Of a DNA stretch of 28,985 nt, positions 1 through 10,159 are shown one piece after another (positions within the stretch are counted from its first letter, which is position 1; each line of letters starts with the position of its first letter). Made by a program: the position numbers and the translations under genes. Source of the stretch: Candidatus Thorarchaeota archaeon (lineage in GTDB: Archaea > Asgardarchaeota > Thorarchaeia > Thorarchaeales > Thorarchaeaceae); NCBI GenBank assembly GCA_011364905.1, contig RDNZ01000038.1:1-28985 (forward strand), written 5' to 3'. The notes beneath the pieces are model-generated. The model ran no database searches. It was not told the origin of the DNA and was given only the letters and a program-made list of their open reading frames with translations.

Positions 1-442
1 GGGCTACATCATACCAACCATAACACCGTAGATGTTTGTCAGTTGTAGCCACAACAACCTCTGATCTATCATCGCTTAGAACATTGAGAACAGTGACTGC
101 TGTCGGGAGTGATCCCAACGGGGTAGTAGCTTTGACACTAAACTCACTGTCCATGTAGACAAGTACCCGGAGAATATTATCCAATCCAGCAATAACAAAA
201 TCGGGCGTTCCATTGCCTATGACGTCACCAACTCCCAAGGCTGCCAATGGAGGTAATCCACTGACTCTCGCAATCTCATTTAATTCAGGGTCCGCCCCTT
301 TATCAACCTCATAGGCTATCACATCTCCTGAGATGGTAGATATCACAGGATTAATCTGCCCATCACAGTTAAGGTCTACAAGTTCGACAGACGTGATGAC
401 CTCTTTGAAGGAAGCCCTTGAGATTACTTCAAGCTCGGTCAT
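1..442 (-). CDS. FG-GAP/VCBS-repeat beta-propeller protein (ITFG2/BBS2-like), 3' end beyond window
   Basis: Not in the ORF track. Manual translation from ATG at 442 is open to the window edge: MTELEVISRASFKEVITSVELVDLNCDGQINPVISTISGDV...ALGVGDVIGNGTPDFVIAGLDNILRVL...VTVLNVLSDDRSEVVVATTDKHLRCY. Three DxxxDGxxE/D-type FG-GAP blades, no signal peptide. Confidence 0.8.
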   Translation of the reverse strand, partial: MTELEVISRASFKEVITSVELVDLNCDGQINPVISTISGDVIAYEVDKGADPELNEIARVSGLPPLAALGVGDVIGNGTPDFVIAGLDNILRVLVYMDSEFSVKATTPLGSLPTAVTVLNVLSDDRSEVVVATTDKHLRCYGWYDVA

Positions 443-1189: not shown

Positions 1190-2698
1190 ATGTCTGACAC
1201 TCTTGATACCGATATGATTAGGCTCATTCGCCTAACAGGCTATCGTGAAACCGAAATAGAAGCTGCCAGAGAGCAGAATACAACAGATTGGGAACGCATC
1301 CAGCTCGCAGTAAAGGAACATAATCGCTTCATAAACATGGGCGAGAAGCACACTCGGCAGAAAGCAGTTCAAGATCCTGTTCATGGTGCGATACTCCTTG
1401 AGCCCTGGGAACTCGACATTATCTCAACGTGGGAGATGCTTCGTCTCAGGTACGTCCGGCAGCTGGGACCAGCTCATTTGGTCTATCCTGGTGCTACGCA
1501 TACCCGTTTCGAACACTGTATAGGTACGAACTTTCTAGCGCAGAAGTCTATTCGCGTTGTGAACTACTGTGATGACCTTGATACAGCGTGTTTCCTTCCA
1601 TTTTCACGTCTTCTTGATGACTATCATCAAAAGCTCTTCAGAGCTGCAGCGCTACTCCATGATGTTGGACATCCTCCTACCAGCCATACAATAGAGTACG
1701 CTTTACATGCGTGGGCTGGTCTTGACCATTTAGACCTTGGCGAGTACCTAATCCTGAATAGCGGTCTCACTGATGTCATAAAACAGAATGATATTGAGCC
1801 TATTCAGGTGGTTGACATCTTTCGAAGACGCTCAACGGACCCTATTATGAAACTTCTCTCGGAATTTCTTGATCACCCATTGGATATCGATAAGACTGAC
1901 TATCTCATTCGAGATGCGCACTTCAGCGGAGTGCAGCTTGGTATATTCCCTGCCGAGAGAGTGATGCTGACCAACCGTGTAGTTAGGAATCGCGAAGGTC
2001 AGTACATCCGGGCCTTCATGCTCAAAGCAATCCATTCACTTGAAGCACTGATTCTCAGCAGGAATTGGATGTTCAGTGACCTTTACCTTCATCATGCTGT
2101 CAGACTCGCTGAGGCTCTGATTTCCAAAGCGACATACTTCAGATTGAAGGAAGAAGGACTCTCAAAGAACGAGTGCATCGGGTTGTTCACGCGAATGACT
2201 GACGGAGACTTGTTCCGATGGCTAGAGGGTTCGGAGATTGGTTTTGTAAAAGAATATGCTGCTAGAATACGGTATCGAAAGCTGTTCAAAGTGGTTTTAT
2301 CCCGACCGCTGGCATCCTTTGAGAAAAGCACGTATGAACATTTTCAGGAGATGCTTCATAATATTCCCAAACTGGTTGAGGCTGAGGATGAGCTCTCAGA
2401 TGAACCGGGGTCTGTCGTTATTGACATCGTCATTCCGACACTGGGTGAAAAGACACTAGGGAAAATTCCGTTGCTTGTAGGTGGCGAGAATGGTTTTGAT
2501 ATAGTCAATCTCGACGAAACTCAAGAGGGACGACCATTGATGCATATTCTGACGCAACAAGCGAGGACTATTCCATCAGTTCGTGTATACGCTGACTCCA
2601 CAATTGCAGAAAAAGTGCATAGGCGGTTTGACAGAAGGTTTCCCGTTTCTGATGTTCCCACACATCGAGAGGAAGAGTATGACCTTACCGAGTATTAA
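1190..2698 (+). CDS. HD-domain phosphohydrolase, SAMHD1-like/YwfO-like dNTP triphosphohydrolase family
   Basis: Motifs DPVHG, RLRYVRQLG, YPGATHTRFEHCIG, AALLHDVGH, DIDKTDYLIRD, R..MFSDLYLHH, and RYRKLFK (HD-associated region). Confidence 0.92.
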   Translation: MSDTLDTDMIRLIRLTGYRETEIEAAREQNTTDWERIQLAVKEHNRFINMGEKHTRQKAVQDPVHGAILLEPWELDIISTWEMLRLRYVRQLGPAHLVYPGATHTRFEHCIGTNFLAQKSIRVVNYCDDLDTACFLPFSRLLDDYHQKLFRAAALLHDVGHPPTSHTIEYALHAWAGLDHLDLGEYLILNSGLTDVIKQNDIEPIQVVDIFRRRSTDPIMKLLSEFLDHPLDIDKTDYLIRDAHFSGVQLGIFPAERVMLTNRVVRNREGQYIRAFMLKAIHSLEALILSRNWMFSDLYLHHAVRLAEALISKATYFRLKEEGLSKNECIGLFTRMTDGDLFRWLEGSEIGFVKEYAARIRYRKLFKVVLSRPLASFEKSTYEHFQEMLHNIPKLVEAEDELSDEPGSVVIDIVIPTLGEKTLGKIPLLVGGENGFDIVNLDETQEGRPLMHILTQQARTIPSVRVYADSTIAEKVHRRFDRRFPVSDVPTHREEEYDLTEY

Positions 2699-3383
2699 TC
2701 AGATGTGTCACTAGTTTCAGCACTTTTCGATACTCATGTTCAATGTATATAATGCCGTATACAGCTTCTATGAGCGTACCTTTGTCATGGTTCTCCTCTA
2801 ACTTGCTTGGAGTATCCGGATCAAAATGGATTCGATACTCGTACAGTCCCCATTTGTCGCACAATTTGGCCATGTTCTCATTACTTACGATATCTGCTTT
2901 TCTTTGGGTGATTCTACCCGCATCTGCAGCACGAGGCTTCCACAGATGTTGCAGGACAGCTGATGAAACAACCGCATCGCCTATCAATGCCAGGACTTGC
3001 GCCATCTCGCTAAGGTTTATCATCTCGGCAAATTCCTCGGAATTGAGTGGGGCGTTTTCACTTGCGTGATATTGCGTTTCCAGTTCCAAAAACAGATTCT
3101 TTGTACTCGGTTGAAACATAGCCATTTGGAAGAGCTCAATATGTTCGAAGTGAGTTTCTAGAGTCTTTTCTAAATATGGTACTAGTACTTCTCTAATCCT
3201 CCTAAGACTCTCCTGTATTGAACGAAGTTCTAAAAGCCACTTATCGAATTTTGTTAACAGTCTCGTGTTGTTCTTAGCTGTTTCTCTTTGAGTTTCATGT
3301 ATTGCTCGGGTTATGATGTCAAGTTTATCCTCGATGTGTATTGGAACCCAAGATATAGTTGGAACTGAACCATCATCCTTCAT
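2685..3383 (-). CDS. Ribonuclease III-domain protein without dsRBD (Mini-III-like signature)
   Basis: VLALIGDAVV (RNase III signature), KADIVSNENMAKL, GTLIEAVYGIIYIE; protein ends right after the nuclease domain. ATG 3383 is preceded by SD-like GGAAGTGA and lies 13 nt after the upstream stop. Confidence 0.82.
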   Translation of the reverse strand: MKDDGSVPTISWVPIHIEDKLDIITRAIHETQRETAKNNTRLLTKFDKWLLELRSIQESLRRIREVLVPYLEKTLETHFEHIELFQMAMFQPSTKNLFLELETQYHASENAPLNSEEFAEMINLSEMAQVLALIGDAVVSSAVLQHLWKPRAADAGRITQRKADIVSNENMAKLCDKWGLYEYRIHFDPDTPSKLEENHDKGTLIEAVYGIIYIEHEYRKVLKLVTHLINTR

Positions 3384-3396
3384 AGTGTCACTTCCA

Positions 3397-4173
3397 TTAG
3401 TAATAACTGACTTCAGCATCTGAAGCATCATAGTGCGAAACTTGGAATGCTGTGGTGTTATACTCAGTTGCTAACTTTGCCATCGCCAGTGTGATAAGAG
3501 GCGGACCCAGTGTCAAGTCAAACACGATATTGTAGTCTGAGAGATGATTAAGAATCTCATTCTCCAGGAACTCGTATGTCTTCTGCAGATTACCATAATC
3601 ATGGTCTTTCTCTCCGCCCATCACCTGTTCCGGTACCTCTTTCCACTCAGTTGTCCACACACGGAACGCATCGTCCGGGATGAAACGATCCATGATTCGG
3701 GAAACCCCTCTTGACCAGTGCACCGCCTCAACAAAGACAAGGAGCTTTTTCGGGTTATAATAGGGATTATTCACAAGCCATTGTACGAAAGGGCGCTGGT
3801 CCTCAGGATTATTCAGCGAAGTAATATACATTAGTGGTTTTGAGATACCAAGTGCCTTGCGGACTGGATGTATTGCTCGTGGTTCCAGCTCGAAAAGGCG
3901 GTACTGAGATTGTTTCCAGCTTACTATGATTCCCAACTCTTCGAGTCTTTGTGTGTTATGATAGAGTTTCGGACTTGTAACCTTGACCTTTGCGATTTCC
4001 TTTCTGCTCGCACCTTCCGCCACCATTCGCGCCTTGATGTCTGTGGCAATCTTCTCCCTGAGTTCGGCGCCTGTCATCAGTCCACCTTCAAGCTGGTCGA
4101 GGATAATCCTTCTCGCTCGAACTGTCTGGATCTCTTCACGGACGACCTCCTCAACGGGTTTTCTGAGCATCAT
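3397..4173 (-). CDS. Transcriptional regulator: N-terminal winged HTH plus C-terminal CARF-like Rossmann domain (inverted Csa3-like)
   Basis: wHTH: RRIILDQL..G.MTGAELR...SPKLYHNTQRLEELGII. C-terminal LMYITSL...PKKLLVFV...NLQKTYEFL...NIVFDLTLGPPLITLAMAKLA matches the CARF secondary-structure pattern and the Csa3-type DLTxG motif. Confidence 0.7.
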   Translation of the reverse strand: MMLRKPVEEVVREEIQTVRARRIILDQLEGGLMTGAELREKIATDIKARMVAEGASRKEIAKVKVTSPKLYHNTQRLEELGIIVSWKQSQYRLFELEPRAIHPVRKALGISKPLMYITSLNNPEDQRPFVQWLVNNPYYNPKKLLVFVEAVHWSRGVSRIMDRFIPDDAFRVWTTEWKEVPEQVMGGEKDHDYGNLQKTYEFLENEILNHLSDYNIVFDLTLGPPLITLAMAKLATEYNTTAFQVSHYDASDAEVSYY

Positions 4174-4224
4174 GCAGCACCATACGCGGATATATTAGCT
4201 AGTAATTATGTGTAGGTTACTATT

Positions 4225-4332
4225 ATACTTATCGAAGATAAAGTCCAGAAAACGCCTTAGAATGCATCGAAATAGCGATGTTTTGTACATAAATTAGATA
4301 CTTTTCGATAATAATGGAACTTATCGGACGTA
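4225..4332 (+). promoter_or_regulatory. Three imperfect 16-bp direct repeats (candidate operator boxes) in the regulator/actin divergent intergenic region
   Basis: ATACTTATCGAAGATA (4225-4240), ATACTTTTCGATAATA (4298-4313), GAACTTATCGGACGTA (4317-4332). Confidence 0.5.
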
Positions 4333-4335
4333 CCC

Positions 4336-4342
4336 TTAAATA
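4336..4342 (+). promoter_or_regulatory. Putative TATA box of actin
   Basis: TTAAATA about 85 nt upstream of the actin ATG; SD-like GAGGA just upstream of the ATG. Confidence 0.45.
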
Positions 4343-4424
4343 GAATTGGCAAGAACGAAATGCTAGTACAGAGTCTCTTAGGCTCTAAGCTATTGAATAA
4401 ATCACAAACGAGGACCGATAAAAA

Positions 4425-5564
4425 ATGGCTGAAGACGAGTTTCTTGGCGCAAAACCAATTGTCATCGACAATGGTACTGGTTTGAGTAAGAACGGTTACG
4501 CCGGCGAAGATCAGCCACGCAGCGTCTGGCCCACACTGATTGGTTACCCACGGTACGAGTCAATCATGACTGACGTGGACCACTATACACGTGACTACTA
4601 TATTGGTGAAGAGGCTATCAACCTCCGTGGTGTTCTCCGACTGGTCTATCCGATCTCTCACGGAATCGTAGAAGACTGGGATGCTATCGAGAAGATATGG
4701 AGCTACACGTTCTATAACGACCTCAAGGTAGACCCAAGCGAGAACCCGGTGCTCCTCACAGAGGCACCATTCAACCCTAGAGAAAACAGAGAGCGCATGG
4801 CATCAGTCATGTTTGATAACTTTGGCGTGCCAGCAGTGTATGTTGCCACACAGGCAGTACTGTCACTGTACGCATCCGGTCGAACCACTGGTCTGGTCAT
4901 TGACTCAGGCGATGGTGTCACCCACATAGTACCTATCTATGAGGGCTTTTCAATCAATCACGCCATCAAGAGGATTGACCTGGCTGGTAGAGATATCACC
5001 GAGTATCTGCGCAGACTCCTCAGACAGAGGGGCTACTCATTCGTGAGCGGTGCAGAGAAAGAGATTGTCAGAGACATCAAGGAGAAACTATGTTACGTAG
5101 CCCTTGATCCCGAGAGGGAGAGAACCGTCGCTGACAAGGCCGGTGTTGACAAGCCCTACATGCTACCAGACGGTGAGGTAATCACCATTGGTGCAGAAAG
5201 GTTCCAGGCACCCGAGCTGTTCTTCAATCCAAGTGCCATTGGTCTAGATACAACACCACTCGACGATCACATTGTCGAGTCAATCAAAGCCTGTGACGTC
5301 GACTTGAGGCGTGACCTATACGCCAACGTCGTACTTTCAGGTGGCTCAACCATGTTCCCAGGGCTCAAGGAGAGACTCCACAAGGAGATCACCGAACTGG
5401 TCCCAGAGAACATCGAGGTCCGAATCATTGCTCCTCCAGAGAGGCAGTACTCTGTCTGGATTGGTGGCAGCATTCTCGGCTCACTGAAGACCTTCCAGAA
5501 GATGTGGGTTTCCAAGAAGGAGTTCGAGGAAGTCGGACCAGAAGTCATACACCGCTGTATCTAG
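4425..5564 (+). CDS. Actin (Asgard, eukaryote-like)
   Basis: 379 aa; [107 protein letters not shown]-terminal HRCI. Confidence 0.98.
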
Positions 5565-9190: not shown

Positions 9191-10159
9191 TCATGATGGT
9201 GACCAATAGTAGAACTGTTTGTAGTAGACATCTTCAAAGCCATATTTTCTATACAGCTTTTGAGCTGTATGATTAATCACAGTTGTATCTAGTTCCACAC
9301 TTTCCGCATCGCTATTCTTTAGATTCTCCAGAACATTTGCAAGTAGATAACTAGCGAGTCCTTTCCCTCGATCTTCAGGTAGAAGTCCAACGGGCCCGAT
9401 TTCAGGTGCATCATCTGTTGGACGAGTGATTACAAATCCAACTACATTACCATCTCTTTGAAGGATCAACGAAGCGTCATCAATATACGGTTTTGACTTA
9501 TCAAACCAGTACTGCAAGGTTGTTTCTTGCTCAGCATGGTTCAAAGAGAGGAACAATCCTTCCTTGCTGTTCTTCAACGTATGAAATGCCGGCTGTACTA
9601 GCTGGTTATAGGACACCTCTGATAGTTTCTTGACCAGATATCCCTGGGGCAACTCAATCTCTGGCAACTCAATTGCTCTCAGATCCGATTTCATGTGTAT
9701 TTCTTCTGCTGCGAACTTGAATCCGCAATCTCGATATGAATCAACAAGCTTGTTGTAGTGAGCTCTATGTGCCTCTGAGTAGAATATTGTTTCAATCTCC
9801 AATCGACTGTGCTGTCCAAGCTCCACTATATCCTGCTTTGACGCTTCAATCAATGACAAAGTAATCCTTTCAGAGTCATTTACATCATCCACTACTGGAT
9901 AGTATCCATTAATGAATGCCATGAGAGGAAACGCGATGTAGTAATAGGTCCAACCGACAAGGTTTTCCTTCTCGTCAGTCGCAGTCAGAACATGATACTC
10001 GTCGCTCTTTGATAGTTTCTCTATGTTTGTTGCGAGGGTTTCAACTGTCATCTTAGACTCCATTGGTGTACCTTTTCTCGCAGATTCTGTAATATGTGCA
10101 AGAATCTGGCTATCTTCCTTGGTGAGTTCTTTGGATTGGATTCCGATTTTCAATCGCAC
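9191..10159 (-). CDS. Tandem GNAT N-acetyltransferase
   Basis: C-terminal VGLLPEDRGKGLA and NHTAQKLYRKYGF; degenerate N-terminal GNAT (YRDCGF). Confidence 0.88.
   Translation of the reverse strand: MRLKIGIQSKELTKEDSQILAHITESARKGTPMESKMTVETLATNIEKLSKSDEYHVLTATDEKENLVGWTYYYIAFPLMAFINGYYPVVDDVNDSERITLSLIEASKQDIVELGQHSRLEIETIFYSEAHRAHYNKLVDSYRDCGFKFAAEEIHMKSDLRAIELPEIELPQGYLVKKLSEVSYNQLVQPAFHTLKNSKEGLFLSLNHAEQETTLQYWFDKSKPYIDDASLILQRDGNVVGFVITRPTDDAPEIGPVGLLPEDRGKGLASYLLANVLENLKNSDAESVELDTTVINHTAQKLYRKYGFEDVYYKQFYYWSPS

Follow-up and report, generated by a model that had tools for sequence, protein, structure and literature searches.

A gene beside actin in a Candidatus Thorarchaeota genome encodes a predicted winged helix-turn-helix (wHTH) protein with a CARF sensor domain, and its linkage to actin is kept far beyond the Thor lineage. 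This gene, here called REG, is divergent from actin and belongs to a gene block at positions 1190-5564 of the window, by which we mean the whole stretch of DNA analyzed (28,985 nucleotides; contig RDNZ01000038.1, positions 1 to 28,985). The reading that we favor, with a probability of roughly 0.55, makes REG a one-component transcription factor that works as a homodimer, belongs to the minor CARF family CARF_m5 and is dedicated to the divergent promoter region that it shares with actin. Asgard actin is central to ideas on the origin of the eukaryotic cytoskeleton. To our knowledge nothing is known on the control of an Asgard actin gene, and a literature search confined to one collection of papers found none tying CARF, CARF_m5 or any other regulator to it.

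An earlier sequence-only reading of the window had called REG a wHTH plus CARF-like regulator that senses independently of CRISPR, and had staked itself on a CARF fold of the C-terminal domain and on conserved linkage to actin. These parts of its interpretation are supported. The identity of the regulator is backed by an AlphaFold2 model, by Foldseek and a second fold search, and by the PADLOC profile CARF_m5, with the C-terminal domain folding as CARF in the model; its independence from CRISPR is backed by the distribution of Cas10, and the actin linkage by synteny across relatives, including 16/16 Thor genera. The same interpretation had made an RNase III gene and a SAMHD1-like HD gene possible outputs of a candidate four-gene signaling module, and this part is not supported. 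The core of the interest is the REG-actin pair and not the module.

Fold, family and sensor pocket of REG

Pfam and NCBIfam scans of REG gave zero matches, and a single-sequence search of the PDB returned chance matches only. From its 78 relatives, nearly all labeled Thorarchaeota, 25 supplied the alignment for an AlphaFold2 model (predicted local distance difference test, pLDDT, 86.8; predicted template modeling score, pTM, 0.82), which together with structural searches divides the protein into a wHTH region (approximately residues 1-108) and a CARF domain (approximately residues 111-258). In an exhaustive structural search (VIA-align), residues 111-258 matched 13 solved CARF proteins at Z 10.2-13.2 and a root-mean-square deviation (rmsd) of 2.5-3.4; the best matches were VC1899 (1xmx, Z 13.2), Cdn1 (13.1), Csm6 (12.2), Can2 and Card1 (12.0 each) and Csa3 (11.7), with rmsd 2.6-3.1 over 120-134 residues. 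Foldseek placed Csm6, Card1 and Cam1 at E 2e-6 to 1e-4, in a top 30 made up almost entirely of CARF proteins, and the N-terminal part of REG (residues 1-110) reached Z 9-10 against ArsR/PadR-type wHTH proteins.

REG also shows a near-full-length match to the PADLOC profile CARF_m5 (PDLC01987; E 2.2e-23, 81 bits, REG 13-243 on profile positions 4-184 of 195). The same profile matches 20/20 diverse Asgard REG orthologues, with a best E of 2.4e-80, and Pfam PadR is found in 13/20 orthologues and HTH_20 in 7/20. A profile of the non-Thor orthologues gives weak matches to the CARF-PIN protein 9JXW and to Can2, with motif II aligned. Predicted fold and profile matches together identify REG as a wHTH-CARF protein and, as a protein, a member of an already catalogued minor CARF family, CARF_m5, whose profile itself carries no description.

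The likeness of REG to the regulators Csa3 and RtcR goes no further than the general idea of a transcription factor gated by CARF. Csa3, from Sulfolobales CRISPR loci (6wxq, 6w11), is likewise a small dimeric transcription factor that joins CARF and a winged helix (rmsd 3.1 to REG over 127 residues), and its profile is weakly matched by 6/20 orthologues. However, Csa3 has its CARF domain N-terminal and its wHTH C-terminal, the reverse of REG; it lies in or beside CRISPR-cas loci, whereas REG is not near cas genes and occurs in genomes without Cas10; and the presumed target of REG, unlike that of Csa3, is a housekeeping cytoskeleton gene. RtcR, a bacterial CARF-AAA+ sigma-54 activator of an RNA repair operon, is a CRISPR-independent CARF sensor for a cellular operon. 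By its description it shares with REG a CARF role outside CRISPR, but REG has no AAA+ or sigma-54 module. The N-terminal domain of REG is like PadR/ArsR-type winged-helix repressors (1xma, CzrA 1r1u, Phr 2p4w), and candidate palindromic operators are a further likeness, but these repressors use the PadR C-terminal helix or a metal site where the sensor of REG is CARF.

REG is independent of CRISPR. No tandem or CRISPR-like array was found in the window, as had been claimed from its sequence, and Cas1, Cas10, CD-NTase (SMODS), DAC and GGDEF were all not found in the host assembly, which is 81% complete. Cas10 profile matches occur in 9/81 family genomes and in 0/23 genus genomes, against REG in 72-73/76 family genomes; the signal is therefore probably not a CRISPR-made cyclic oligoadenylate. 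Since no cyclic-(oligo)nucleotide synthase of known type was found in the genome, a cyclic oligoadenylate signal for REG is unlikely here.

CARF motif II, which follows strand 4, has the consensus D-x-[TS]-x-G-x-[KR]. Its residues D219 and G223 are almost invariant among REG orthologues, and non-Thor orthologues keep the canonical motif as D-[VL]-T-x-G-x-[RK], reading DVT(G/C/D)G(S/T)(K/R). The REG of the window and most Thor-family orthologues read DLTLGPPL or similar and lack the basic residue, unlike Csa3, where we take this residue to contact cyclic tetra-adenylate (cA4). Thor-clade proteins have an insert bearing conserved arginines instead of canonical motif II, and an insert of approximately 20 residues in the HTH region. 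The best-kept CARF residues of the Thor family are polar or charged (T118, S119, R127, E149, R155, R163, T175 and D219), and the conserved residues of this kind sit on the loops after strands 1 and 4 and on the Thor-specific insert.

REG is also predicted to form a homodimer. The prediction scored an ipSAE of 0.73, against 0.02 for the best control, and passed a mark that is passed by 20/30 solved one-chain pairs and by 1/23 solved single chains. Runs agreed in at least 95% of contacts, with partner pLDDT of at least 88. The predicted interface comprises residues 191-200, 220-236 and 243-249, with residues 225 and 232 of the motif II helix each contacting their own copy in the partner. The pass may stem from similarity to CARF dimers that have already been solved.

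One alternative is that REG is a constitutive, ligand-free factor of the actin promoter and that the Thor CARF domain is now a plain dimerization module. The loss of the motif II Lys/Arg in the Thor clade and a predicted dimer interface that passes through the motif II helix would fit such a factor, as would the failure to find a cyclic-nucleotide synthase in the host genome. The conserved polar residues around the canonical pocket nonetheless speak mildly against it, in a pattern that fits a retained binding site better than packing alone, and the canonical motif is retained in non-Thor orthologues. We consider a ligand-free REG improbable.

The REG-actin pair and its promoter region

Positions of REG and actin were compared across 301 sampled genomes of the phylum, and approximately 90 loci were fetched. 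Lineage labels (Odin, Baldr, Hermod and so on) are the submitters' titles, and f1 is the Thor family of the window itself. All 17 fetched Thor-family loci, from all 16 genera, share one order: a Cys-rich open reading frame (ORF) and the HD gene on one strand, then RNase III and REG convergent to them, then actin divergent from REG. Start codons of REG and actin lie 243-552 nt apart in this family, one genome excepted at 1.5 kb. Outside the Thor family, the divergent REG-actin pair is the sole part of the block that is kept, in most REG-bearing lineages and in 31/38 testable genomes: Odin-labeled f3 (4/4), f2 (1/1), f6 (1/1), Baldr f8 (1/1) and f15 (3/3), Hermod f12 (10/10 testable), f13 (3/3), Frey/Jord f19 (6/6) and Hod-labeled f21 (2/2). 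In f30 the two genes are adjacent in tandem.

The surroundings of the pair are far less stable. Genes flanking it vary between lineages, and in non-Thor REG-bearing lineages REG is mostly followed by a convergent gene; a same-strand gene stands downstream of REG in two non-Thor loci only (f2 and Odin), and it is an unrelated gene. REG identity across classes is 22-35%, and the intergenic regions of different classes, 123 to 582 bp long in at least 10 families, cannot be aligned.

A full-length REG was not found by profile in the largest other families, among them Loki-labeled f9 (68 genomes), f5 (28) and Heimdall/Hodarchaeales-labeled f22 (21), which gave partial CARF matches only. Upstream of the best-scoring actin of REG-less families, a hidden Markov model search found no REG-like gene; the position is taken by a radical SAM gene, an MscS-like channel, an amidohydrolase or small ORFs that match no family. 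As a side observation, a single actin match per genome is usual in REG-bearing lineages and 3-6 are usual in the REG-less Loki-labeled f9, but Heimdall-labeled f22 has one actin match without REG, so that the pattern is not clean.

The intergenic region of the window contains candidate promoter elements and operators (Table 1). The TATA-like element on the REG side lies only approximately 20 nt from the REG start, and the REG mRNA would therefore be leaderless; the block CGCGGATATATTAGCTAGTAAT at this putative promoter is almost invariant in 23 genus-level loci. On the actin side, CTTAAATA is found 81-136 nt upstream of the actin ATG in 43/46 Thor-family loci, and the remaining 3/46 comprise two with the variant CTTAAATG or CTTATAT and one without a match. 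Three ACTTWTCG boxes, at 4227, 4300 and 4319, fall within 100 bp and are conserved in the genus, and the window has 7 copies of this 8-mer where 1.56 are expected. Genome-wide, the 10-mer form of the box has 24 matches, fewer than the 33 of the reversed control. It is thus not enriched and gives no hint of a wider regulon, and the REG-actin intergenic region is the only site of the genome with two 10-mer copies close together. The boxes are genus-specific: they were not found in other Thor genera, some of which have candidate TCGA-N5-TCGA-like elements in their place.

Putative operators also hold their position in other classes. Odin, Baldr, Frey and Hod loci carry a GATATC-centered palindrome 32-39 nt upstream of the actin TATA-like element, and Hermod loci carry TCTATCA-N10-TGATAGA at the equivalent position. 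In five REG-less families, the 420 nt ahead of actin contain no GATATC. This positional conservation offers the best indirect evidence that REG may act at the actin promoter, and the location of the repeated or palindromic boxes, approximately 33-37 nt upstream of the actin TATA, suggests activation.

The palindromes bear on a second alternative, in which REG regulates only itself (and RNase III in the Thor family) and actin just shares the intergenic space, divergent promoters being hard to separate. In its favor, Box 1 is placed approximately 30 nt ahead of the REG TATA, PadR/ArsR-type factors often regulate their own genes, and REG occurs unlinked to actin in f7 and f28. However, in five lineages the spacing of the palindrome is fixed to the actin TATA and not to the REG start, and the pair survives across families with unalignable intergenic regions, all other neighbors changing. 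Self-regulation alone thus seems to us quite unlikely.

Proposed mode of action

If REG is a dedicated factor of the REG-actin promoter region, its two CARF domains would pair via the helix after motif II, which would place the usual CARF pocket on the two-fold axis, and the two winged helices would read the repeated or palindromic boxes approximately 30-37 nt upstream of the actin and REG TATA boxes. A cellular ligand, distinct from the cyclic oligoadenylate of type III CRISPR, would occupy the pocket and reset the winged helices, tuning actin transcription. In the Thor family, an RNase III-domain gene would have been recruited into the REG transcript, and the 502-aa HD gene and the Cys-rich ORF would be fixed neighbors with no mechanistic tie to REG. 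REG would then be a specific factor with candidate operators and with a sensor domain whose pocket is of a druggable type, and the pair would make a testable candidate switch of actin expression in archaea. If true, this would be a clear case of CARF in housekeeping gene control, in genomes without a known cyclic-oligonucleotide synthase, and would widen the view of CARF sensing.

Several observations weigh against this reading. The link is not universal, because REG lies away from actin in Jordarchaeia-labeled f7 (pair in 0/5) and in Hel-labeled f28 (0/1), and GATATC is absent from the 420 nt upstream of actin in f7. Several Thor genera have no clear box, and the Thor box sequence is unlike the GATATC palindrome of other classes. 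A box approximately 35 nt upstream of TATA hints at activation but is no proof of it. The Thor CARF domain, without the basic residue of motif II, may have a different ligand or none at all. Finally, related genomes are not independent observations, and the counts of the pair therefore overstate its support.

A bolder version of the proposal, which we put forward tentatively and regard as doubtful, is that, across most Asgard classes, actin transcription is gated by a CARF sensor that works outside CRISPR and answers to a signal from RNA ends or derived from nucleotides. As a switch of the cytoskeleton it would be ancestral and under ligand control, and in Thorarchaeia the co-transcribed RNase III would add post-transcriptional control at a stem-loop in the actin 5′ untranslated region (UTR). 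The predicted stem-loop has 7 pairs, 3 of them with compensatory changes (RNAalifold, 22 genus sequences), and could be a stabilizer or an RNase target. When actin 5′ UTRs were aligned across the family, no consensus structure emerged, and the hairpin is genus-level only.

Locus layout and neighboring genes

The order of genes in the window (ORF list with Pfam and NCBIfam scans) is that of the Thor-family block. The four genes of the sequence-only reading are real and placed as it had them, according to ORFs and Pfam scans. The divergent intergenic region between actin and REG (4174-4424) is exactly 251 bp, and the distance of 13 nt from REG to RNase III is exact if the latter starts at ATG 3383, the REG stop TAA lying at 3399-3397. 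An SD-like (Shine-Dalgarno-like) GGAAGTGA stands between the two, at 3395-3388. The 3′ end of RNase III overlaps that of the convergent HD gene by 14 nt (2685-2698). Translation of REG probably starts at the second ATG, 4170, because most homologues open with a single Met.

Table 1. Genes, candidate operators and putative promoter elements of the block, in window coordinates
Feature	Positions	Strand	Evidence or remark
Cys-rich ORF, 187 aa	566..1129	+	ORF list; upstream of HD on the same strand
HD triphosphohydrolase (predicted), SAMHD1/EF1143-like, 502 aa	1190..2698	+	PF01966 and PF19276 (HD_assoc_2, 64 bits)
RNase III-domain gene, 232 aa from ATG 3383	2685..3383	-	PF00636, residues 145-231 of longest frame
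REG, 258 aa	3397..4173	-	wHTH and CARF; fold prediction and PADLOC CARF_m5
TATA-like element of putative REG promoter, TAATATATCC on minus strand	4188..4198	-	Putative; close to REG start
Box 1, TACTTATCGA	4226..4235	+	Candidate operator, upstream of REG TATA
Box 2, TACTTTTCGA	4299..4308	+	Candidate operator 37 nt upstream of actin TATA core; kept in genus alignment
Box 3, AACTTATCGG	4318..4327	+	Abuts actin BRE/TATA
Actin B recognition element (BRE)/TATA, CCTTAAATAG	4334..4343	+	Conserved across Thor-family loci; putative function
Small stem-loop near predicted 5′ end of actin mRNA/5′ UTR	4370..4386	+	RNAalifold
Actin, 379 aa	4425..5564	+	PF00022, 444 bits, profile positions 5-407 of 410

The RNase III protein has a helical N-terminal extension and no double-stranded RNA-binding domain (dsRBD). 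Its longest frame, 2685-3431(-), matches PF00636 at 50.1 bits (cut-off 27), and among PDB sequences it comes closest to the Drosha RIIID domains (2e-7), with Dicer next; bacterial RNase III and Mini-III did not appear in this search at E <= 0.01. The motifs LIGDAV and LIEAVYG align to Drosha LGDAV and FEALIG, with the acidic residues of GD and EA kept. Against the bacterial equivalog TIGR02191, the protein scores 39.6 bits (cut-off 166) over positions 34-139 of 219 and so falls outside that equivalog. With Mini-III (class 4 RNase III) it shares a single catalytic domain without a dsRBD and an Ala in place of the acidic residue four positions before GD (LALIGD), but it differs in an extra helical N-terminal part of approximately 90-130 residues and in being closest to Drosha RIIID.

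RNase III orthologues are found in 73/76 family genomes. The gene lies immediately downstream of REG on the same strand in 17/17 fetched loci and abuts REG wherever both are listed in family genomes, with aligned blocks 15-124 nt apart; because this adjacency holds throughout the family, the two genes are probably co-transcribed. Outside the Thor family, full-length homologues are sporadic (29-39% identity), Loki- and Heimdall-labeled genomes included. None of 15 such loci has HD, REG, actin or the Cys-rich ORF nearby; their neighbors are transporters, thiolase, AAA, FeoB and a Schlafen-like gene.

The HD protein is, as the sequence-only reading had proposed, SAMHD1-like. A phmmer search of the PDB matched Aquifex 2HEK (4.5e-33), the EF1143 dNTPase 2O6I (4e-26) and SAMHD1 (approximately 2e-20), homology to these systems spanning E 1e-20 to 4.5e-33. 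The motifs HTRFEH, LLHDVGHPPTSH and DIDKTDYLIRD align with their counterparts in 2HEK and EF1143. The kept His/Asp metal site and DxDKxDYxxRD motif support a predicted activity as a SAMHD1-type deoxynucleoside triphosphate (dNTP) triphosphohydrolase. Unlike those enzymes, the protein is extended at its N terminus by approximately 55 residues and carries an HD_assoc_2 tail. The paralogue is specific to Thor, its 502-aa orthologues (at least 59% identity) occurring in family f1 only; a second HD paralogue, of approximately 435 aa, is the form found across the phylum. In one Thor-family locus (L035, genome G027, 9546-9840), the 502-aa gene is reduced to fragments between RNase III and the Cys-rich ORF, the other genes of the block being kept, and the paralogue is thus dispensable. 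In four more genomes a profile search found the short paralogue alone, three of which are fragmented assemblies where the long gene is possibly unassembled.

The Cys-rich ORF, which has zero family matches in Pfam and NCBIfam scans, adjoins HD in 17/17 fetched Thor-family loci, and the two may form an operon.

These neighbors bear on the earlier proposal that the four genes form one nucleotide-signaling, stress or antiviral module, in which a cyclic oligoadenylate or RNA-damage signal would act through REG on actin, with RNase III and the dNTPase as outputs. A five-gene block kept in 17/17 fetched loci from 16 Thor genera, the mere 13 nt between REG and RNase III, the retained dNTPase catalytic motifs and the inclusion of CARF_m5 in a defense-system profile library are all compatible with it. 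However, RNase III and the 502-aa HD accompany REG in the Thor family only; in all other lineages with REG, the REG-actin locus lacks both, and the full-length RNase III homologues of other families have unrelated neighbors. Moreover, HD is convergent and so is not co-transcribed, and its copy in L035 has decayed although the rest of the block is kept; each of the four genes belongs to the Thor-family core, near-universal and at a single locus, and none is a patchy island gene; and the signal-producing families searched for in the host genome (Cas10, CD-NTase, DAC and GGDEF) were not found. We found no evidence for an antiviral four-gene module, and nothing stands behind the antiviral reading except domain names. 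Such a module appears to us very unlikely, and RNase III and HD fit better as lineage-specific neighbors than as signaling outputs. This negative outcome means that RNase III and the SAMHD1-like enzyme are not to be read as defense outputs from adjacency alone.

Hardly credible is the absence of any functional link, with adjacency as inherited gene order: descent alone can keep five-gene synteny within one family, and related genomes share their history, but across classes REG and actin alone stay together, at 22-35% REG identity and amid reshuffled surroundings.

Two further observations concern the actin locus. An FG-GAP/BBS2-like beta-propeller gene lies close to it (window 2-442(-)), and in the sister family f2 a similar gene stands immediately downstream of REG (L048:6523-7500(+)).

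At a cut-off of E <= 1e-40, the actin of the window is the sole actin match in its assembly. Six Thor-family genomes, each from a different genus, have an actin ORF interrupted by a 30-nt insertion that brings an in-frame stop after approximately codon 358. Three such genes were aligned (L039:4512-5678(-), L046:4546-5712(-) and L047:4726-5892(-); the actin of the window is excluded), and deleting the 30 nt restores ...TFQKMWVS... in all three. The insert contains a hairpin (GCTGCA...TGCAGC), in which one arm position becomes a G-U pair in L047, and it resembles a mini-intron of an actin mRNA in archaea.

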